Below, one piece after another: positions 1,037-62,660 of a DNA stretch of 62,913 nt (positions within the stretch are counted from its first letter, which is position 1; each line of letters opens with the position of its first letter). Position numbers and translations under genes: made by a program. The notes beneath the pieces are model-generated. The model had not been told where the DNA came from, did no database searches, and was given only the letters and a program-made list of their open reading frames with translations. Where the stretch lies: contig JBLHIK010000001.1 of assembly GCA_047614005.1 (NCBI GenBank), forward strand, positions 1 to 62,913. The letters are read 5' to 3'. This stretch comes from Flavobacteriaceae bacterium (GTDB lineage Bacteria > Patescibacteriota > Minisyncoccia > Phycocordibacterales > UBA1006).

Positions 1037-2926
1037 TTATCGCACTTCCCAACCCTCTGAAGTGATATTTTCTTCAAGTTTTTTCATAATCAATCCCACC
1101 TTTTCGTCAGTAAGTGTTTCTTTAGATGATTGAAATACCAAACGATACGCGCGTGATATCTTGCCCTCTTTCTCGAATGTATCAATACACCTGGGATGAG
1201 TTGCAAGCAACTCTTCGTCTGAAGCAGAGAGAATATCCACAAGCTCTTTCTCTTCTACAGAAGAAGGCATCCAAACAGCAATATCTCTTACAATATATGG
1301 AAAGAGAGACCATGGATGGAAACCACTTTTCCTTTGAAGAGTAATATCAGAAAGCAAAACGTCCGATGAGGCATTTTCAAGAGAAAAATCTGCAAGGTTA
1401 TACTCTCTTACATTTTCACTTTCTTTATATGAAATATTTCCAAAGATTTCTTCTATTTTTTCATGAATATCATTGAGTTTATTTTTCCATTCTTCTTTTT
1501 TATCTTTTCCTTTATTTACTCCAAGTATAAGGTGTCTTTCTTCGGACGGAATAAACACTGTTCCTATTTCAAATAGAAACACCATCTCACCTCCTAAGAG
1601 TTCGCTAAAAGAAACATTGCGTGCAAGTGCGTCACTAAAACCAGACGCCAGGTTTTCTCGAAGATGACTCTTGTCTTTAGAAAAAGGATTCAAGAGAGCC
1701 ATCTTTCCTTTACTTTCAAATGTATATGTCAAAATATCATAATACCCTTCCTTGATAAGCAAGTCTCGAAGAAATCGCTCAAGAACAAAACTCTCATCAT
1801 GAGATATCGGTGCTATATGATTTGGAACTAGAGGCTTTATAGAGTTGTAGCCATATATGCGCCCTACCTCCTCTATGACATCTTCAGGGATAGAAACATC
1901 AAGCCTATCTTTAGGGATGGATACCTTCCACGAATCATCAGAAAAAGTAACAGCCCATTTCAATGCAGTAAAAATATTTTCAATATCATCTTGCATGAAC
2001 GTCGTACCTAAAAGACTATTGATATGAGCAAGAGAAATATCAACCGTTCTTTTTTCTTGTACTTCTTGATATGTGTCAGCAATAGTACTCACAAGAGTAT
2101 TTTCATTTCCTGAAAAACTCAATATATAATTTGTCAGTACCTCCATAGCAAGAGTCGCTCTCTCTGGAGTGAGATTGTTTTCATATCTCTTACTTGCATC
2201 AGTATGAAGCTTCATAGTGCGCGCTGTGGCTCTTGTCGATAGAGGTTTAAAGTTCGCAACTTCTATAAGAATATTTTTTGTATGATCATCTACTTGAGCC
2301 TTTATACCCCCCTTAATTCCAGCAAGTGCCAAAGGGGCGATACTATCTGCAATCACTACCATAGAAATATCAAGAGCTCGAGGTTCTTCTTCTCCCAAAA
2401 GAGTGATGATTTCTCCCTCTTTGGCATATCGTACGCAAATATCACCTTCGACTTTATCAGCATCAAAAACATGTGTTGGATTGTTTGTCTCAAAGAGTGC
2501 AATATTCGTAGCATCCACCACAGCGTTAATAGAGCGATTACCTGTATTCTCTAGAAATTCAATATACTCTTGTGGCGTTTCTGTGAAAGATATATTTTCT
2601 ATGAGGCGAAGCATGTATCTACGAACTTCTTTTGTTTCGAGAGTTATCATAGGAGCTTCAAGAGATTCGCTATACTGAACCGTTGGAGATACGTCTTCCT
2701 TGCATTCTTGTGAAGTAAGAGCACTCACTTCTCTAGCAACTCCAATATGACACAGACAGTCCCCCGCTCTGTTGGGCAGGACATCAATATCTATGATAGT
2801 GTCATTTCCTTTTGCTTCCAATCCTTCAAGTTCAAAAGAATGAAGCGAGAGCAAATCAGCCACTTTATCTACCGATGGAAGTGGAGTATCAAAATATTTT
2901 GAAAGATGTTTATAGCTGATTTTCAT
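1037..2926 (-). CDS. pheT: phenylalanine--tRNA ligase beta subunit (short form, 629 aa)
   Basis: Lies immediately downstream of pheS. PheT-like N-terminus (MKISYKHLSKYF..DIDVLPNRAGDCLCHIGVAREV) and a C-terminal anticodon-binding-like end (RDIAVWMP..AYRLVFQS). Confidence 0.85.
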   Translation of the reverse strand: MKISYKHLSKYFDTPLPSVDKVADLLSLHSFELEGLEAKGNDTIIDIDVLPNRAGDCLCHIGVAREVSALTSQECKEDVSPTVQYSESLEAPMITLETKEVRRYMLRLIENISFTETPQEYIEFLENTGNRSINAVVDATNIALFETNNPTHVFDADKVEGDICVRYAKEGEIITLLGEEEPRALDISMVVIADSIAPLALAGIKGGIKAQVDDHTKNILIEVANFKPLSTRATARTMKLHTDASKRYENNLTPERATLAMEVLTNYILSFSGNENTLVSTIADTYQEVQEKRTVDISLAHINSLLGTTFMQDDIENIFTALKWAVTFSDDSWKVSIPKDRLDVSIPEDVIEEVGRIYGYNSIKPLVPNHIAPISHDESFVLERFLRDLLIKEGYYDILTYTFESKGKMALLNPFSKDKSHLRENLASGFSDALARNVSFSELLGGEMVFLFEIGTVFIPSEERHLILGVNKGKDKKEEWKNKLNDIHEKIEEIFGNISYKESENVREYNLADFSLENASSDVLLSDITLQRKSGFHPWSLFPYIVRDIAVWMPSSVEEKELVDILSASDEELLATHPRCIDTFEKEGKISRAYRLVFQSSKETLTDEKVGLIMKKLEENITSEGWEVR

Positions 2927-26855: not shown

Positions 26856-26965
26856 TGTCTTGGCGACGACCTACTTTCCCCAAAGAGTATCATCGGCGCA
26901 AAGAGGCTTAACTTCTGTGTTCGGAATGAGAACAGGTGTTTCCCTCTCGCTTTATCACCAAGACA
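26856..26965 (-). rRNA. rrf: 5S ribosomal RNA
   Basis: Minus strand reads TGTCTTGGTGATAAAGCGAGAGGGAAACACCTGTTCTCATTCCGAACACAGAAGTTAAGCC...GTCGTCGCCAAGACA. Helix I closes and the CCGAAC loop is present. Confidence 0.9.
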
Positions 26966-27061: not shown

Positions 27062-30442
<3,381 letters not shown>

Positions 30443-34727: not shown

Positions 34728-37700
34728 TCATGATTTTCTTTTAAACAAATGAAATACTCTCTTGAAAAAGTTTCTTATCCTGTGCCAGAGATTTTCCGAA
34801 GTAGCATCACTCACCGAAGCAGAGAGAAGAGCAGGCACATCTCCCTCTTTTATATCTTCTACTTTTTCTACATCTGCGATACTCACCTCATCTTCTTCAG
34901 TATTTTCTTCTTCCTTTTTCTCTTTTACTAACTCTTTTTCTATGAGTATTTCCTGTACGGATTCTTCTGTTGTTTCTTCTACCATTACTTCTTCTATCGC
35001 TTCATCTGTTTCTTCTTCCTTTTTTTCTTTTACTGCCTCTTCCTCTTCTTGTACTACTATTCTCTTTTGTCTAGAACTACTTCCTGACGAGACAGTGTGT
35101 TGTACCTCTATATTACTACTCTTCATACTCTCAGTATTTCCCGCAATATCTATAGAAAAATACGATACAGTCGAGGAGCTCTGAGCGAGGAATGGATATT
35201 CATAGATCTGCCACTCACCACTATCGAGCCGGTACCATGTTCGTAGTATCTCACTCTCGTCTTCTGTAATGAGAGTGATTTCTTTTTCCGATGAACCACT
35301 CTCAGAGAGGTGTGTCACAGGAGACACAACATCTACAGAAGTACTCACAGAAACTTCGCTGATGAGAGTATCTATCGTGCCGTCGTTTTCATCGTCTATA
35401 GAGAGCTCTATAGACGAGAGATCTTCTGTATCGAGAGTGAACGTCGTCACAGAAGTACTCGTCACTAGCTCTACGTCGTTATAGAGACGCGTCTCTATAT
35501 ACTCGCCATTATGTACCTTTTGTATATATAGATCATAGCTCCCTGTATCGTAGGCATCTATCTGTATATCGAGAGATCCAGAGACAGACTCGTCGATAAA
35601 CATATACATCACATCCTCTATCATCTCTACATGCACGCCTTCAATGCCCTCTTCGAGAGTGCCATCTTCGAGCAGTCCTACATGTCCTCCTGAGCTGTCA
35701 TATATATGAAGATTCACAGGACTATGAGTGCTCACGACTGTCCCTGATATATCACCGCACGCACCTACTCTCGAAGAGAACTCCGACTCGCTCGCAGTAC
35801 CACCTGAGAGTATATCGAGTATCCCTTTTCTCACATCTGTATCATTCATCATGAAAGCATGTGAGGTTTCGTTGACATAATATATCTCATCTACTTCCTG
35901 ATGAGAGGCACTCTCTATAGGCACTACATCATCTCCGTTGATATATAGTATCTTGTAGTCGAAAGAGTCTTCGTCTCCTATGAGAGCCTTGCTACTATTG
36001 TTGCCTATGATAAATTCTCCGAGAGTCGGAGACTGACAACCAGCAAAGGTATAGGTTTGCACCTCTCCAAAATCCATATTTTCTATTGAACTATGCAGTG
36101 GCTCTATAGTATCAAACATGAGAGAGTTTCTTCCTTGATCCTGTAAATACCCTCTCGTCTCGTCGTAGTCATATGAGCCATCGGCAAAGACTGTGGTCGT
36201 ATCTGTGACGTATTCCCCTCCTCTCTCTTCAAAGTATTTACCTGTCGGCAAGAGCTGATAGACTGATGGGAAGTTTTGGGATATTTCTTGTATGCGTTTT
36301 TCATTGAGTTTGAAAGGTCCAACTCTAAATCCCATACTATCTCCCCACATGAGAACTTTAAAAGCTTTGGGAGCTCCTATATGTGGTGTCCCCACGAAGA
36401 CGACCTTGTCTATACTCTCCTTACCATAATCTGCTGCATATGATTTTGCCACGAGACCTCCCATGGAGTGTGCTATGAGAGTGACTTGTTCTGCTTCTGT
36501 CTCGAGAAGTACTGCGTCTATCTTTGCCTTTAATAGCTCGCCTGTCATACGTGTATCAAAACGCCAGTCATAAGGAAAGGGAAAGAACGTCTCTCCTTCT
36601 ATATATCCTATACTTTCTAAATCTTCAATGAAATCTTGTGTGATATTTTTATTCACAACTTCTCGAAAAATATCCCCTTCTTTCACATCATTCACAGAAT
36701 TCTGTCCGTCATTAAAAAGAGATAATTCTTTAAGATAATTATCATCAGGGAGTAATACTCCCTTCAAAGCTCTCGGCCATTTCTCCTCTCCATTTTCTCC
36801 ATCTATGAGATAGCTCGCAGTAATTCCAGGGATAAATATCACAGGTGTGAGCTTTTTCTCTACGCCGTATTTATCAAAAGGTTGCATTCCTGCTTTTATC
36901 TCTGGCTTTTCTGTGAGCCAGTCAGAATAGTCGACATCTCCCTCCACTACTCCCCCTTCTCCATCTGGATTATTTGTATGTGTCGGACCAGTCTCGCTCC
37001 CCCAGTAATTCCCCCTTGCTACCACAGGATCATTCCCTTCCATGAAAACATCCCTTTCTCTACTATTCTCAAAAATACTATTTTCTACTGTCACTCTTCC
37101 ATTTCCTGTAGCATAGATGCCTCTATTATTTCCAGAAAAGACTGTATTTTCTATAAGAGTATCTGAGGTAAATCTTTCGTATCTTTGATATCTTCCAGAT
37201 CTAGTATAGATAGCTATGTTTGCATTTTGTATTCTATTGTTATACAGATGTGAATTCGGGTCAGTTCCAATATATATTCCGATATTGCTATCGTCATAAC
37301 TATCAAATGCAAAATCATTGAAACCCATTTTCATGTTACTATCTTTTCCTATACTTCCTATACTTGCACTAGTGTCAAAATGAAAAGCATTATTAATAAG
37401 AGTGAAATTCCCATAAACACCCAATCTAAAACCCTTCTTGGATATATGACGAGCTACGCTGTTTTGCATGGTGATATGAGCAGCTTCGCGAGTCGTCAAA
37501 AGAGTCCCAACATGCGTTGCCTCCAGCTCATCTATGAGAGTGTGGCTAGTATTATAAAGACCTTCTACACCTGTTTCAACATGAGAGAGAACAGGCCTGA
37601 CGAGATGGCCCCTCGATCTATAAAATAAAAACCCTCTTTCTCCATATGATATGTGTATATCTTTATACTGACCATATTGATTTGTAAAAAAAAGATAAAG

Positions 37701-38156
37701 ACCCGTGCTTGCGTGATAGATATTCAAGTGAGAGAGTGAAAGAGTGGTATCTTTTCCAATTCTGATTCCTCCCCAACAGTATCCATCACAATATTCTTGG
37801 TCGAGATTGCCACCTTGTGCATTTCTACTTGCAAAAAGTATCGGGAGGTCTTTTGTACCATTGGCAGTAAAGGTAGCTCCTCCACCAGTAATGATTCCAT
37901 AATACGGATATCCATCAAAATCTTCTGGAGGTGCATCTACGTAGACCTCCACACCTGGCTCTATGGTAAGACTAGTGTATTCGCCCCACATGTTGATATT
38001 TGTTTGCAGGATATACGGAGACCCCTCAAGAGTCCACGTCACCTCACTTTCAATATTTTCGGTAACAAAAGTCTCTGCAAATGCACTTTCTAAAGGAGAC
38101 AACAAAAAGAAAAAACCACATACAACAAGAAAGATAATGTATCGCTTTCTACTCAT
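34728..38156 (-). CDS. large secreted protein: signal peptide, right-handed beta-helix repeats, LCAT-like alpha/beta-hydrolase (lipase/acyltransferase) domain, Ig-like region, acidic low-complexity tail
   Basis: Signal MSRKRYIIFLVVCGFFFLLSPLESAFA. Repeats of the NosD/pectate-lyase type (NNRIQNANIAIY.., ENTVFSGNNRGIYA.., ENSIFENS). VIFIPGITASYL..PYDWRFD..IAHSMGGLVAK..GTPHIGAP matches the LCAT/PGAP1-like lipase pattern (YDWR, GxSxG). Confidence 0.75.
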   Translation of the reverse strand: MSRKRYIIFLVVCGFFFLLSPLESAFAETFVTENIESEVTWTLEGSPYILQTNINMWGEYTSLTIEPGVEVYVDAPPEDFDGYPYYGIITGGGATFTANGTKDLPILFASRNAQGGNLDQEYCDGYCWGGIRIGKDTTLSLSHLNIYHASTGLYLFFTNQYGQYKDIHISYGERGFLFYRSRGHLVRPVLSHVETGVEGLYNTSHTLIDELEATHVGTLLTTREAAHITMQNSVARHISKKGFRLGVYGNFTLINNAFHFDTSASIGSIGKDSNMKMGFNDFAFDSYDDSNIGIYIGTDPNSHLYNNRIQNANIAIYTRSGRYQRYERFTSDTLIENTVFSGNNRGIYATGNGRVTVENSIFENSRERDVFMEGNDPVVARGNYWGSETGPTHTNNPDGEGGVVEGDVDYSDWLTEKPEIKAGMQPFDKYGVEKKLTPVIFIPGITASYLIDGENGEEKWPRALKGVLLPDDNYLKELSLFNDGQNSVNDVKEGDIFREVVNKNITQDFIEDLESIGYIEGETFFPFPYDWRFDTRMTGELLKAKIDAVLLETEAEQVTLIAHSMGGLVAKSYAADYGKESIDKVVFVGTPHIGAPKAFKVLMWGDSMGFRVGPFKLNEKRIQEISQNFPSVYQLLPTGKYFEERGGEYVTDTTTVFADGSYDYDETRGYLQDQGRNSLMFDTIEPLHSSIENMDFGEVQTYTFAGCQSPTLGEFIIGNNSSKALIGDEDSFDYKILYINGDDVVPIESASHQEVDEIYYVNETSHAFMMNDTDVRKGILDILSGGTASESEFSSRVGACGDISGTVVSTHSPVNLHIYDSSGGHVGLLEDGTLEEGIEGVHVEMIEDVMYMFIDESVSGSLDIQIDAYDTGSYDLYIQKVHNGEYIETRLYNDVELVTSTSVTTFTLDTEDLSSIELSIDDENDGTIDTLISEVSVSTSVDVVSPVTHLSESGSSEKEITLITEDESEILRTWYRLDSGEWQIYEYPFLAQSSSTVSYFSIDIAGNTESMKSSNIEVQHTVSSGSSSRQKRIVVQEEEEAVKEKKEEETDEAIEEVMVEETTEESVQEILIEKELVKEKKEEENTEEDEVSIADVEKVEDIKEGDVPALLSASVSDATSENLWHRIRNFFKRVFHLFKRKS

Positions 38157-57800: not shown

Positions 57801-58361
57801 TTACAGATGTGTTTCCCGGAGAGAGGTGTTGATTGCCTCGATACAGTCTGCCTGAAAAGCTCGTGATACTTTCATTGATTCATAAAAAGGAGAATCTATC
57901 AAACCCTCGAGATTATCTTTTGGATTCATATACCCCAAGTGATATAGCATCCTGAAGACTGCAACGCACTCTAGATCAGCTATTTCACTATTTGAAATTT
58001 CTTTCAGTAATGAGAAATACTCCACAAGAGTTACAAATAACATTTCATTTTTCTCTTCTCCTGAGCATAGGCGAGTGACAAGTTGCGCGATACGCGAAAA
58101 ATCATTAAAGCGAGATACTGGTATATATTGACATGTGTGTGCATGAATAAATCTCCATCCACTCAATCCATAGATACATTCCACATGAATGTATGAAAAG
58201 AGCTGGAAGCGATTACGCAACTTCCCTTCAATCTTACGAACACTATAAAGAAGGCCTTTTATTAGACCAAACTCTTTCGTATAGACAGAAATATACTGAT
58301 TTGATTCTCCTGTATTTTTTATAGAGACAACAAATCCCTCTGTTTGATAAACAGGATACAT
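57801..58361 (-). CDS. recO: DNA repair protein RecO (short form)
   Basis: TEGFVVSIKNTGESNQYISVYTKEFGLI OB-fold start. Position and size are compatible. Moderate support only. Confidence 0.55.
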   Translation of the reverse strand: MYPVYQTEGFVVSIKNTGESNQYISVYTKEFGLIKGLLYSVRKIEGKLRNRFQLFSYIHVECIYGLSGWRFIHAHTCQYIPVSRFNDFSRIAQLVTRLCSGEEKNEMLFVTLVEYFSLLKEISNSEIADLECVAVFRMLYHLGYMNPKDNLEGLIDSPFYESMKVSRAFQADCIEAINTSLRETHL

Positions 58362-58371
58362 ACTACAATAT

Positions 58372-61300
58372 TTATGTATTAATTTTTATGATAGATAACT
58401 CCGTACCAAATAAAATATCTTGTGTCTGAGTGATTGCCTTAATCTCATTTTCAAATTGAGAAATAGTATCTTTCATAGATGAAGGTATAGTGAGTTCAAT
58501 GACATCGTCTGGAGTGAGTCCCTTTTCTTTACGTAGTGATTGAATAGTGCGAATAAGGTCTCTTACTTTCCCCTCTCTTTCAAGTTCTTCAGTAAGAGAT
58601 GTATCGAGCAAAACAGAGAGTATTTCATCTTCAATACATTCTATCTTTTTCACATTTATCTCATCTGCAATAATCTCTTTTATTTCTTCTGAAAAGGAGA
58701 TGCCTTTTATAGTAAGACATGCGAGAGGTTGCCTTACTTTTATTCCTGCTTTTTGGCGAGCCTCAAGAGCAAGTGTCACCACCTCTCGAACCTTTTCCAT
58801 TTGAGTGATTGCCTCTTGCGAATATTCTTCTACCTCTTTCCATCCTTCTAGGTGAACTGACTCATATTTTGTCGGAGAGATTTTTTTCAGTTTTTGATAT
58901 ATATCTTCTGCTATAAAAGGTGCAAAAGGTGCGATAAGCTTGCTGAGTTCGAAGAGAATATAGTGTGTTGTGGCAAGAGCTTGTTTTGAATCATCACTAT
59001 TTCCTTTTAATCTTTCTCGTGATCGTCTGATATACCATGTTGAAAAATCTTGAACAAAGTCACGATAAGCGCGCACAGCATCTATCATGTTATATGCTTC
59101 CATAGATTTAGTCATAACTGAAGTAAGCTCTTGTAGTCTTGCATGTATCCATACATCGAGAGCATGGGAGAAATCTGGAGATACCATCTGCGAAGTGGCA
59201 TACGTCTCATAGAGAGAAAGGCAGTTTGCAAGAGGGTTGCAAATCTTGTTCTGCACATCACTCACAGTACGCTCATCAAAGTTTTTCATTTCACCTGGTT
59301 GATTCACGGAATACATCCACAGACGCAAAACGTCTGCACCATACTTGTTCATCATATCCCATGGAGATGTTGTATTTCCTTTACTTTTACTCATCTTTTT
59401 TCCTTCAGAGTCTAAGATAAGACCGAGACATAGGCAGTTTTTATAAGGAGCTTCTTTTCCGAGAAGTGTCGAAATAGCGAGAAGTGTATAGAACCAACCG
59501 CGCGTCTGGTCTATTCCCTCTGAAATATAATCAGCAGGGAAAAATTCCTCTTCTTTTGATTTTTCTGTGAAAGGATAATGTTCCTGAGCATACGGCATAG
59601 CACCAGAATCAAACCACACATCGAGCACTTCTTTTGTTCGAGTCAAAGAAGACCCATCAGTATCGACGAGCTGTATTTCATCTATGTAAGGCTTGTGAAG
59701 ATCGAGTTCAAAATCAAGATTGTGAGGAAGTGGAGTAAATTCGAGCTCGTGTACTTGAGCATTTTTGAAATACGTAAAACCATTTTCAAACATGCCTTCA
59801 GTCTGCTTTGCATCGAGTCCATTTGATACGGCATGCAAGAGCCACAAAGGAGTACCATGACTTACGATAAGTATATTTTTTCCTACATACGTACATTCTA
59901 AGTCATAGAGAAAGTCCCCCATCCTTTTCTTTACATCACTTAAAGATTCTCCTTCCTCTGGAGCATTTGTAAATGATGTGTCTGTGTTACTGTCACGAAA
60001 ATCTGTGTGCCATTTTTCTACTGATTGTCCTTCAAAAATACCAAAACCTACCTCTCCTATTCTGTCATCAAACAATATCTTCTCATCAGATACTCCGAGC
60101 TTTTCTTGCAAAAGAAGAGCCGTTTCTTTTGTGCGAACAAAAGGAGATGAGACTATGAGGTCTACGTTTAATTTTTCCAATTCAGATACAGTTTCTTGTA
60201 TTTGTTCTTTTCCTTTTTCTGTAAGAGAGTGAGGATTGTTCTTCTCTCCACTCAAAAGACCCAAAACATTACTCTCTGCCTCTCCGTGTCTTATAGTAGT
60301 ATATATATTACCTGATTTTTTTGCGTGGGATTTTATATCTTCAATAGACCCAAGAACTTTTGCAACGCCATTTTCATTTTCCCAAATAGGAAGAGGTGTC
60401 CCCCAATAACGCTCTCGCGAAATAGCCCAGTCCTTGATATCTCTGAGCCACTCACCGAAACGTCCGTCTTTTATATAGCTTGGTTCCCAGTTGATAGTTT
60501 CATTTCTTTTCAATAGCTCATCTTTGAGCTTACTCATCGCGATATACCACGAGTCTCTCGCATAGTAGATCATAGGAGTTTTACATCTCCAGCAGTGTGG
60601 ATATGAGTGTTCGTATTTTTCTTTTGAGAAAAGAAGACCTCTGTGTGCCAAGTCTTTTATAACATCAATAGCAACCTGTTCATCTTTCACAAAACGCCCT
60701 GAGAGAAACTCCATACCATCTTCAAAATTTCCATATTCATTTACAAGGTGGTATTTAGGGAGACCTATCTTTGTACCGAGCTCAAAGTCATCCTGTCCAT
60801 ACATGATAGCAGTGTGCACTACACCTGTTCCGTCTTCTGTCGTTACAAAATCAGCTCCATATATTTTATATGCTTTTGAACTATCTATGTTTTCTTTTTC
60901 TAATTTCTCTTGAAGGTATGGATAAAGAGGTTCGTATGAAAGACCTATGAGATCTTTTCCTTTTATTTCTTCTACTACTTGAATTTCTTTATCTTTAAAT
61001 ATTTTCTCAGAAAGCTTTTTTGCAACGATAAAAAGCTCATTCTCAAAAGAAACTTTTATGTAATCAATATCTCCCCCCACTGCAAGAGCTACGTTTCCTG
61101 GAAGAGTCCATGGTGTTGTCGTCCATGCAATGATGTAGGTGTTTTCCATTTCTTTTATTTTAAATTTGGCCGTCACTGAAAGGTCTTTTACATCTTCATA
61201 TCCTTGTGCGAGCTCATGAGAAGAAAGAGCTGTCGTACACCTCGGACACCACGGAAGAACCTTGTAGTCTTTATATAAATATCCTTTTTCATTTATTTTT

Positions 61301-61800
61301 TGTACTATATTCCAAACACTTTCCATGTAGCTAGGATGATATGTCACATAAGGATTTTCCATATCGAGCCAGTATCCCATTCGGTCAGTAAAAGCCTCCC
61401 ATTCGGAACGATATGTCCACACACTAGCGCGACATTCTTCGTTGAATTTTCCGATACCATATTTTTCAATATCTTTTTTACCAGCAAAACCAAGACGCTT
61501 TTCTACTTCAAGCTCCACAGGAAGACCATGAGTATCCCACCCTGCTTTACGCCGCACGTGATATCCGCGCATAGTCTTGTATCTTGGAATCACATCCTTA
61601 AAAGCGCGTCCTTCGAGATGATGAATACCAGGACGTCCATTTGCTGTTGGAGGACCTTCGTAGAAGACATACTCCCCTTCTGGAGAATCTTTCTCGAGGC
61701 TCTTCTTGAAAATATTGTTGTCTTTCCAAAATTCTAAAATAGACTCTTCGAGAAGAGCTCGCTCGCTTTTATCTGATGTGTGGTAATTTTGTTCTTTCAT
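58372..61800 (-). CDS. ileS: isoleucine--tRNA ligase (type 2-like) with an inserted histidine-phosphatase (PGAM-like) domain
   Basis: PPTANGRPGIHHLEG (HIGH), WTTTPWTLPGN, WAISRERYWGTPLPIW, KKMSKSKGN (KMSKS). Residues ~498-697 carry IRHGEAESN, SSPFVRTKETA and IVSHG. Confidence 0.9.
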   Translation of the reverse strand: MKEQNYHTSDKSERALLEESILEFWKDNNIFKKSLEKDSPEGEYVFYEGPPTANGRPGIHHLEGRAFKDVIPRYKTMRGYHVRRKAGWDTHGLPVELEVEKRLGFAGKKDIEKYGIGKFNEECRASVWTYRSEWEAFTDRMGYWLDMENPYVTYHPSYMESVWNIVQKINEKGYLYKDYKVLPWCPRCTTALSSHELAQGYEDVKDLSVTAKFKIKEMENTYIIAWTTTPWTLPGNVALAVGGDIDYIKVSFENELFIVAKKLSEKIFKDKEIQVVEEIKGKDLIGLSYEPLYPYLQEKLEKENIDSSKAYKIYGADFVTTEDGTGVVHTAIMYGQDDFELGTKIGLPKYHLVNEYGNFEDGMEFLSGRFVKDEQVAIDVIKDLAHRGLLFSKEKYEHSYPHCWRCKTPMIYYARDSWYIAMSKLKDELLKRNETINWEPSYIKDGRFGEWLRDIKDWAISRERYWGTPLPIWENENGVAKVLGSIEDIKSHAKKSGNIYTTIRHGEAESNVLGLLSGEKNNPHSLTEKGKEQIQETVSELEKLNVDLIVSSPFVRTKETALLLQEKLGVSDEKILFDDRIGEVGFGIFEGQSVEKWHTDFRDSNTDTSFTNAPEEGESLSDVKKRMGDFLYDLECTYVGKNILIVSHGTPLWLLHAVSNGLDAKQTEGMFENGFTYFKNAQVHELEFTPLPHNLDFELDLHKPYIDEIQLVDTDGSSLTRTKEVLDVWFDSGAMPYAQEHYPFTEKSKEEEFFPADYISEGIDQTRGWFYTLLAISTLLGKEAPYKNCLCLGLILDSEGKKMSKSKGNTTSPWDMMNKYGADVLRLWMYSVNQPGEMKNFDERTVSDVQNKICNPLANCLSLYETYATSQMVSPDFSHALDVWIHARLQELTSVMTKSMEAYNMIDAVRAYRDFVQDFSTWYIRRSRERLKGNSDDSKQALATTHYILFELSKLIAPFAPFIAEDIYQKLKKISPTKYESVHLEGWKEVEEYSQEAITQMEKVREVVTLALEARQKAGIKVRQPLACLTIKGISFSEEIKEIIADEINVKKIECIEDEILSVLLDTSLTEELEREGKVRDLIRTIQSLRKEKGLTPDDVIELTIPSSMKDTISQFENEIKAITQTQDILFGTELSIIKINT

Positions 61801-62090: not shown

Positions 62091-62660
62091 TCAAGAAAAT
62101 AAGTGTCTAAGTCTACACCACCAAGATGCTTGACAAGGTACTACAAAGGTAAAAGGGTGGTGCGCAGGCCAACGAATGTCACTCGAGAAACAACGCACAT
62201 ATATATTCAACTCACCCGATACGAAGTTCACGCACGCAACGAAGAACTTTTCTTCACCCTTTACTTTTGCAGTAAACAAGAAAAATTTTCCCCGCATGCG
62301 TGTGAGTAACCATTGTTTGTTTTCCTGACAGAATGTTTCAAGCTGCTCTTGAGATTCAAAAGCAAGGTTGTTTTTCTTTAGCGACTGTTCGATTTCATGT
62401 CGTACATCCTCATTTTCTAAATCAAGTTTTTTTATTCCTTTATATCTGTACTTTTTTACAAGATCAGGACACAATGAAACAAATAGTGTTTTGAAATCTG
62501 CGCTTTTATTATACTTATTATACATTTCATAAACACGAAACTTATTACCTATTTTTTTTACAAAACGAAGATAAGGATTTCTAAAAATGCGTCTAATAAA
62601 AAACAAAAGTACACAAACTATTACAATACCTACTAATATTTGAAAAATTGTATTTTCCAT
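62091..62660 (-). CDS. hypothetical membrane-anchored protein
   Basis: 189-aa ORF with an N-terminal TM segment (IFQILVGIVIVCVLLFFI). Confidence 0.5.
   Translation of the reverse strand: MENTIFQILVGIVIVCVLLFFIRRIFRNPYLRFVKKIGNKFRVYEMYNKYNKSADFKTLFVSLCPDLVKKYRYKGIKKLDLENEDVRHEIEQSLKKNNLAFESQEQLETFCQENKQWLLTRMRGKFFLFTAKVKGEEKFFVACVNFVSGELNIYVRCFSSDIRWPAHHPFTFVVPCQASWWCRLRHLFS

Follow-up and report, generated by a model that had tools for sequence, protein, structure and literature searches.

The question raised by this locus is why an isoleucyl-tRNA synthetase (IleRS) should carry a complete histidine phosphatase within its catalytic core. The gene concerned, ileS, lies on the minus strand of contig JBLHIK010000001.1 (assembly GCA_047614005.1), of which positions 1 to 62,913, referred to below as the window, were analysed. 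It forms one uninterrupted open reading frame (ORF) of 1142 amino acids (aa), in which 197 residues that belong to the histidine phosphatase superfamily separate the two parts of a type-2 IleRS.

A histidine phosphatase nested in an isoleucyl-tRNA synthetase

The inserted segment is recognised by the Pfam family His_Phos_1 (PF00300) at aa 503-668, with an E-value of 1.7e-31 and a score of 109.9 bits against a gathering cut-off of 21.7. Its borders were set by alignment to the best solved-structure match of the window IleRS in a phmmer search, Priestia megaterium IleRS2 (PDB code 8c8w; E = 3.9e-250), which pairs query residues 17-494 with chain residues 13-479 and query residues 692-1096 with chain residues 479-893. 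Since 8c8w has no residues in between, the extra segment comprises approximately aa 495-691. The original prediction, made by reading the DNA itself, had proposed a histidine phosphatase of about 200 residues at 59710-60309, nested in the catalytic core in a continuous frame; the alignment to IleRS2 confirms the nesting and moves the borders by only about 20 nt (59728-60318), and all the motifs then quoted (IRHGEAESN, SSPFVRTKETA and IVSHG in the domain, WGTPLPIW and DLHKPYIDE on its flanks) are found in the ORF. The absence of intein features claimed at that time was borne out as well, and an intein was rejected: there is no Hint or intein Pfam match, and the junctions KKSG/NIYTT and ELEFT/PLPHN lack splicing residues.

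All the residues expected of a histidine phosphatase active site are present, namely the Arg and His of the RHG motif, a second Arg, a Glu and a second His. Their conservation was counted in a MAFFT alignment of 171 full-length family members (Table 1), where Ser-552, Gly-530 and Thr-560 are also invariant or nearly so, while the identity of the insert between members is only ~35-48%. An AlphaFold2 (AF2) model of the insert alone (pLDDT of 87.7) was used for a Foldseek search, which revealed that its closest structural homolog is PspA (PDB codes 4ij5 and 4ij6; TM-score of 0.76, probability of 1.00), followed by GpgP, PhoE and CobC. Thus, the insert is a bona fide branch-1 His_Phos_1 fold whose catalytic residues are all under strict purifying selection, and the nested phosphatase is apparently active, as judged from its conserved residues. 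The phosphoserine phosphatase PspA (4ij5), the glucosyl-3-phosphoglycerate phosphatase Rv2419c (GpgP; 4pza), PhoE (1h2e) and the alpha-ribazole phosphatase CobC (6e4b) share the fold of the insert (TM-scores of 0.72-0.76, 25-30% identity) and resemble it in length (~190 aa) and in their catalytic set of Arg-His, Arg, Glu and His. In contrast with these enzymes, the window domain is nested in another enzyme, and it lies outside the PspA, CobC and cofactor-dependent phosphoglycerate mutase (dPGM) subfamilies because it scores below every curated equivalog cut-off: 67.5 bits against 350 for PspA (NF045917), 75.2 against 162.9 for CobC (TIGR03162), 89.5 against 225 for the archaeal dPGM model (NF038349, dPGM_arch) and at most 37 against more than 300 for TIGR01258 and related dPGM models.

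The host protein displays all the features of a synthetase. It reaches 889 bits with the ileS equivalog TIGR00392 (cut-off 621.4) despite the insert, and Pfam assigns tRNA-synt_1 in two halves with His_Phos_1 between them, followed by Anticodon_1 and DUF5915. The editing domain of connective peptide 1 (CP1) is present, as aa 200-402 align to the isolated Thermus editing domain (PDB code 1wk8). The full-length AF2 model has a pLDDT of 90.7 and a predicted TM-score (pTM) of 0.85, with both junctions modelled at high confidence; in a Foldseek search it matched only IleRS structures, the closest being 1ile (TMt of 0.92) and 8c8v/8c8w (TMt of 0.79), and the insert was left uncovered by any solved synthetase structure. 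The last ~20 residues of the insert, which are disordered in the model of the isolated domain, are confident in the full-length model, and this suggests that the tail may pack onto the host. The window IleRS is collinear with P. megaterium IleRS2 (8c8u/8c8v/8c8w) and Thermus thermophilus IleRS (1ile) over the whole enzyme and has the editing domain, KMSKS motif, anticodon-binding domain and C-terminal domain of type-2 IleRSs. It differs from them by the 197 extra residues, which form an independent enzyme domain, and by the loss of the zinc-knuckle cysteines described below. All synthetase features are therefore retained, and aminoacylation itself is predicted. Synteny with insert-less orthologues (argS-ileS-recO) argues that the gene product is the organism's housekeeping type-2 IleRS, as far as sequence can tell. 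A second ileS is absent from the 63-kb window, the part of the genome that was covered, and the models of the resistance-type IleRSs MupA and MupB (NF000257 and NF000258) gave 787.9 and 810.2 bits, respectively, against a cut-off of 1900.

The HIGH motif of the window IleRS has the non-canonical GxHH form, which is the variant engineered in 8c8w. The PDB describes that entry as a 'mupirocin hyper-resistant HIGH motif mutant' of IleRS2, with a PGVHH motif. Most insert-bearing IleRSs display GxHH or AxHH, while a second large branch has the canonical HxGH, and the phosphatase is found in both branches.

The insert lies between WGTPLPIW and DLHKPYID...DVWFDSG, which places it in the CP3 subdomain, structurally the most variable of the connective peptides. 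CP3 links CP2 with the second Rossmann half; the Candida, Thermus and Staphylococcus IleRSs each have a different topology in this region, and in the Thermus enzyme CP3 bears a zinc-binding motif (PMC7191050). A zinc knuckle of the CxxC...CxC type brackets the insert in 76 of the 171 homologues and has been lost in the other 95, the window protein included. The phosphatase is thus nested at the tip of a naturally variable, stapled hairpin. CP3 is a natural insertion-tolerant site in class Ia synthetases, which makes it useful for enzyme engineering.

Table 1. Coordinates of the ileS gene, its nested domain, its motifs and the downstream gene (numbering of the window)
Feature	Position	Strand	Evidence or remark
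ileS ORF, type-2 IleRS with nested phosphatase domain	58372..61800	-	ORF, TIGR00392, AF2, Foldseek
IleRS N-terminal part, aa 1-494: first Rossmann half, CP core, CP1 editing domain, CP2, CP3 start	60319..61800	-	aligned to 8c8w residues 13-479
GxHH form of HIGH, G58-I-H-H61, reads RPGIHHLE	61618..61629	-	non-canonical
WGTPLPIW element, aa 466-473	60382..60405	-	conserved, directly precedes CP3
CP3 zinc-knuckle cysteines replaced by N475, D713 and D715	about 60376-60378 and 59656-59664	-	
Inserted histidine phosphatase domain, 197 aa (aa 495-691), nested in CP3	59728..60318	-	IleRS2 alignment gap, PF00300
R504-H505 of RHG, phosphate-binding Arg and nucleophilic His	60286..60291	-	invariant, 171/171
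R556, second phosphate-binding Arg, in SSPFVRTKETA	60133..60135	-	invariant, 171/171
E583, predicted proton donor	60052..60054	-	Glu in 167/171, Asp in 3
H648, second catalytic His, in IVSHG	59857..59859	-	invariant, 171/171
IleRS C-terminal part, aa 692-1142: CP3 end, second Rossmann half, anticodon-binding domain, C-terminal domain (DUF5915)	58372..59727	-	Pfam, alignment to 8c8w
DLHKPYIDE, aa 700-708, where IleRS CP3 sequence resumes past the insert	59677..59703	-	aligns to ELHKPYVDD of 8c8w
KMSKS motif, aa 802-806, reads KKMSKSK	59383..59397	-	conserved family-wide
recO, downstream gene of the argS-(phosphatase)-ileS-recO block	57801..58361	-	Pfam RecO_N

Distribution and genomic neighbourhood of the phosphatase

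The spread of the embedded form was assessed in a HMMER search of 1.84 billion cluster representatives (50% identity) with a 271-aa query spanning both junctions, which retrieved 156 representatives at E ≤ 1e-30. Among the matches listed, most align to the whole query in one stretch, the complete proteins have ~1130-1200 aa, and of the 150 cluster representatives listed, more than 100 have the architecture. In a full-length search, PF00300 was present in all of the best 120 IleRS clusters (55-60% identical), whose named sources are metagenome-assembled genomes (MAGs) of Parcubacteria, Patescibacteria, Pacebacteria and Nomurabacteria. As a rule, IleRS carries the phosphatase in a large clade of ultra-small bacteria of the Candidate Phyla Radiation (CPR)/Parcubacteria, across which the architecture has been inherited. 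Two trivial origins were rejected on these data. An assembly chimera or sequencing artefact is ruled out by the same in-frame junction on more than 100 independent contigs (NCBI, JGI, ENA and Logan), and a recent horizontal insertion by that recurrence together with a base composition equal to that of the host gene (GC of 0.372 for the insert and 0.387 for the remaining gene; 0.274 and 0.311, respectively, at third codon positions). Three ways in which the original prediction might have failed, a missing phosphatase match, a segment shared with canonical IleRSs and a chimeric contig, are thus closed by the strong HMM match, the absence of the segment from canonical enzymes and the recurrent junction.

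The exhaustive HMMER and full-length searches also dispose of the idea that the window protein is unique. In this respect the original prediction needs correction, as the arrangement is not singular but standard in a large CPR clade. A literature search found no paper that describes a synthetase with a histidine-phosphatase or PGAM domain. The window protein is itself already public under the label 'MAG: isoleucyl-tRNA synthetase [Flavobacteriaceae bacterium]'. Such sequences are public under generic names, and their bifunctional architecture was not found described in the searchable literature. The contig has a GC content of 36.5%, and its IleRS and argS/ileS/recO-type neighbourhood match Parcubacteria/Patescibacteria MAGs. 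Its Flavobacteriaceae label is probably a binning or taxonomy error.

Aminoacyl-tRNA synthetases that have gained additional domains are usually discussed as a trait of complex eukaryotes. In the present case, bacteria that are among the most genome-reduced known have an essential synthetase whose catalytic core harbours a further enzyme, apparently active, and the embedded phosphatase has been kept across a whole class-level lineage.

The closest free-standing relatives of the insert are ~190-aa proteins of sister CPR lineages that are 34-45% identical to it (P and L numbers below denote proteins and loci of this analysis). They include P0003 from Candidatus Staskawiczbacteria (GCA_026395195) and P0017 from Candidatus Moranbacteria (GCA_018001175), and they score 150-208 bits with a hidden Markov model (HMM) of the inserts, against 90-113 bits for unrelated His_Phos_1 proteins. 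They share the syntenic block of the insert but are free proteins with a different C-terminal tail. One apparent stand-alone homologue, P0001, was rejected, as it is a fragment of a frameshifted embedded IleRS, and P0010 is probably a similar case. The stand-alone genes occur in the order argS, phosphatase, zero to four further genes, an insert-less ileS (933-1020 aa) and recO. Upstream, argS directly precedes the phosphatase in 17 of 18 distinct loci, a metagenome scan included; downstream, ileS follows within 3 kb in 10 of the 13 loci with enough sequence. The stop codon of the phosphatase overlaps the ileS start in locus L002 (Staskawiczbacteria), and the gap between the two is 1-2 nt in L005. 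At embedded-type loci, argS is followed directly by the fused gene and then recO in seven of nine cases, and no stand-alone phosphatase gene was found at the argS-ileS position in the embedded-type loci examined. As a negative control, ~60 loci of more distant His_Phos_1 genes were inspected, and none had ileS nearby.

The phosphatase is therefore found either inside or beside ileS at the argS-ileS-recO locus, the two states never together, so that phosphatase and IleRS form an evolutionarily linked pair, fused or neighbouring, in a Rosetta-stone pattern. This signal suggests that the phosphatase probably has a job tied to translation. In neighbour-joining trees, which carry no support values, neighbour-type IleRSs fall among embedded-type ones and stand-alone phosphatases among embedded domains, and the embedded protein P0159 adjoins the stand-alone Moranbacteria group in both trees. 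These trees hint at repeated switching between the embedded and stand-alone states.

In the window, recO comes next after the fused gene, and on the upstream side only 1.1 kb separates ileS from the contig end. The gene directly upstream of ileS (62091-62660, minus strand) encodes a 189-aa protein without a Pfam or PADLOC match; argS occupies that position in seven of nine related embedded-type loci. In locus L021, a gene for a HIT-family (DcpS_C/HIT) hydrolase (2211-2669, plus strand) lies between the stand-alone phosphatase and ileS. HIT enzymes act on nucleoside monophosphoramidates and aminoacyl-adenylates, and the L021 gene may hint at nucleotide-related chemistry in the cluster.

When the domains were mapped with HMMs of the families, several variants of the architecture emerged. 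P0161 and P0168 are IleRSs with two or three tandem phosphatase domains, while in P0071 and P0108 a second copy separates the catalytic domain from the anticodon-binding domain; complete extra IleRS copies retain all five catalytic residues. P0095 carries, in addition to His_Phos_1, a GNAT-like domain after the phosphatase and a REP-type tyrosine-transposase-like domain. Additions among the IleRS relatives P0095, P0071, P0108, P0147, P0161 and P0168 include such a REP-associated tyrosine-transposase-like domain in the editing region and a block of ~170 aa without assignment. It seems that the class Ia synthetases of CPR bacteria accept inserted domains unusually well. Extra catalytic domains on enzymes of this kind are already known from NCBIfam. 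NF040702 ('isoleucine--tRNA ligase, N-acetyltransferase domain-containing') is a precedent for an IleRS with an additional enzyme domain, and NF005567 (bifunctional RNase H/acid phosphatase, Rv2228c type) for a His_Phos_1 domain fused to a nucleic-acid enzyme. The window protein scores far below the cut-offs of both models (349.7 against 1999 and 80.6 against 326, respectively), and its phosphatase is nested, not terminal.

A second synthetase with the same type of insertion is valyl-tRNA synthetase (ValRS). PF00300-bearing ValRSs are widespread in Gracilibacteria/Peregrinibacteria (proteins P0293-P0410); one to three His_Phos_1 copies were mapped in 70 of 119 relatives, and P0104 carries four. 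In 74 of 84 cases the domain is flanked by RQxWWGxxIP and DTWFSS, a position homologous to that of the IleRS insert, and a minority of domains occupy a second site before RQxWWG. With a median of 98 bits on the IleRS-insert HMM and ~29% identity, the ValRS domains resemble the IleRS insert no more than generic members of the family do, which makes a separate acquisition probable. All five catalytic residues are kept in 56 of the 84 copies and at least one is lost in the other 28, about a third of the copies lacking the Glu or the second His. At the two insert-less valS loci that were checked there is no neighbouring His_Phos gene, so that the Rosetta-stone test was negative for ValRS. These ValRSs thus resemble the window IleRS in the superfamily of the domain, the homologous site, the wide distribution and the tandem copies, but they differ in host enzyme and lineage and in a catalytic set that is incomplete in a third of the copies. 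The name 'class I tRNA ligase family protein' conceals bifunctional IleRSs or ValRSs in hundreds of database entries.

What the nested phosphatase may do

The favoured explanation, which is given a probability of about one half, is that a housekeeping IleRS carries an autonomous, active phosphomonoesterase for a diffusible substrate, docked in the permissive CP3 loop. The domain would work through a phospho-His505 intermediate with Glu-583 as proton donor, a role predicted from the conserved sequence, and its substrate would most likely be a small phosphorylated metabolite or a nucleotide, by analogy with PhoE, PspA, GpgP and CobC. The insert would be a relocated form of the operon neighbour, or interchangeable with it. 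The IleRS would offer a permissive and rigid docking loop, strict co-expression and co-localisation with the translation apparatus, and the phosphatase would take no part in the chemistry of aminoacylation. A diffusible substrate is favoured because the copy number varies, with two or three tandem copies in some proteins, because a second insertion site exists and its copies are catalytically complete, because the orthologue is a free protein in relatives, and because the nearest characterised relatives are small-molecule enzymes. The charge of the insert points the same way: its net value, acidic on average, is not conserved (mean of -4.7 in the family, -14 in the window protein), so that there is no conserved basic RNA-binding surface.

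Several observations weigh against this explanation. The insert falls short of every curated equivalog cut-off in NCBIfam, and its substrate is therefore not readable from homology. Of the two neighbours, argS shows tighter linkage than ileS, and part of the linkage may therefore reflect inherited synteny and not function. The neighbour-joining trees, for want of support values, are not relied on for the direction or the number of events. In addition, His_Phos_1 recurs in the ValRSs of another CPR lineage, at the homologous position in CP3 and probably by separate acquisition, and the junctions are modelled confidently and rigidly; these two points suggest that a position near the synthetic site could matter, which would favour a role in cis on the tRNA or the enzyme.

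The most serious of such cis roles, although distinctly less probable than a diffusible substrate, is the healing of tRNA ends. Here the phosphatase would strip a 2'- or 3'-phosphate, or stepwise a pyrophosphate, from the CCA end of tRNA; such blocks would be left by ribonuclease toxins or toxic small alarmone synthetase (toxSAS) effectors, and their removal would let the IleRS-bound tRNA be charged. The location of the domain in the catalytic core of a tRNA-binding enzyme, the rigid junctions of the full-length model, the occupation of the homologous ValRS site and the position of stand-alone orthologues in a synthetase gene cluster (argS-X-ileS) are all consistent with it. Pyrophosphorylation of the tRNA CCA end is moreover an established toxin and antiphage mechanism that blocks aminoacylation (10.1101/2021.04.30.441581; PMC11559606) and offers a precedent for the block. 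However, the nearest structures to the insert are small-molecule enzymes, its charge is unconserved and on average acidic, tandem copies and alternative sites would be hard to explain if the target were one bound 3' end, and a repair confined to tRNA-Ile would be of little use. We know of no member of the histidine phosphatase superfamily that acts on RNA ends. PADLOC gave no match for the insert, its stand-alone homologues or the upstream ORF, which leaves a link to known anti-phage defence unsupported. The action on tRNA ends suggested in the original prediction is thus one possibility but not the best supported.

A wider form of the same idea is tentative to a similar degree. The nested phosphatase would serve the class Ia synthetases of episymbiotic CPR bacteria as a built-in means of repair or counter-defence, stripping inactivating phosphates from the tRNA CCA end (blocks of toxSAS or ribotoxin type) or from the KMSKS loop (added by HipA-type kinases). 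The fold would probably have been recruited separately to the CP3 sites of IleRS (Parcubacteria) and ValRS (Gracilibacteria/Peregrinibacteria) because these would bring it beside the pocket for the acceptor end and ATP.

It is rather unlikely that the domain is a phosphoprotein phosphatase that reverses an inhibitory phosphorylation, either of IleRS, for example at the serine in its KMSKS loop, or of translation proteins nearby, as a built-in protection against HipA-like kinase toxins. Branch-1 histidine phosphatases do include the protein phosphatases PGAM5, Sts-1 and SixA, and the domain is tied to three class I synthetase genes, argS, ileS and valS. To our knowledge, no kinase targets IleRS or ValRS, and the conserved neighbourhood of the related loci examined has no kinase gene. 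The NCBIfam matches listed for the insert are small-molecule enzyme families, with no SixA match among them; the nearest structures are again small-molecule enzymes, and the copy number is variable. The precedent for such a role is the inactivation of the class I synthetases GltX and TrpS through phosphorylation by HipA-family kinases (PMC6581861, PMC8262856).

Slightly less probable still is a non-catalytic module, either a structural replacement or extension of CP3 or a ligand sensor in which metabolite binding tunes IleRS without turnover. The structural variability of CP3 among IleRSs (PMC7191050), the loss of the zinc knuckle that staples CP3 in the window protein and 95 of the 171 members, and the 28 of 84 ValRS domains that lack at least one catalytic residue fit this explanation. 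It does not account for the five catalytic residues that are essentially invariant in the 171 IleRS members despite 50-65% divergence elsewhere, a pattern expected for catalysis and not for scaffolding, nor for the extra IleRS copies, which keep these residues too.

A moonlighting glycolytic enzyme, that is, a short dPGM that supplies the phosphoglycerate mutase step in reduced genomes, has a comparably poor chance. The top NCBIfam match of phosphatase type is the 194-aa archaeal dPGM model, and the function may be essential, since all the lineages examined have retained the domain in embedded or stand-alone form. Yet the score of 89.5 bits is far under that model's cut-off of 225, and the top structural matches are phosphatases. 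dPGMs carry motifs of the ERxYG and HGN type after the catalytic Glu and His, whereas the insert has GEVGFGIFEG and SHGTP, which are of phosphatase type.

The arrangement might also be an artefact, arising from a chimeric assembly or from two frameshifted genes, or a selfish, intein-like element that is spliced out. This can be dismissed, since, although the embedded ileS of one related contig (L001) is split into four ORFs, the in-frame junction recurs on the independent contigs, the composition is that of the host gene, Hint or intein domains and splicing residues are lacking, and the full-length fold is confident.

The fused protein provides a concrete and cheap experimental entry into the biology of uncultured CPR bacteria.

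Other features of the window

A further ORF of the window (34728-38156, minus strand) also encodes 1142 aa. It was rejected as a second synthetase by its domains, a right-handed beta-helix region and an LCAT/alpha-beta-hydrolase domain, and the equal length is a coincidence. No 16S rRNA gene was found in the window. The 23S rRNA match (27063-30437, minus strand) extends over 3375 nt against a model of 2925 nt and thus holds ~450 nt of extra sequence, in which no group I or group II intron family was detected at gathering score. A 129-aa ORF (27617-28006, minus strand) lies inside the 23S rRNA gene, and a 5S rRNA gene (26858-26962) adjoins it.

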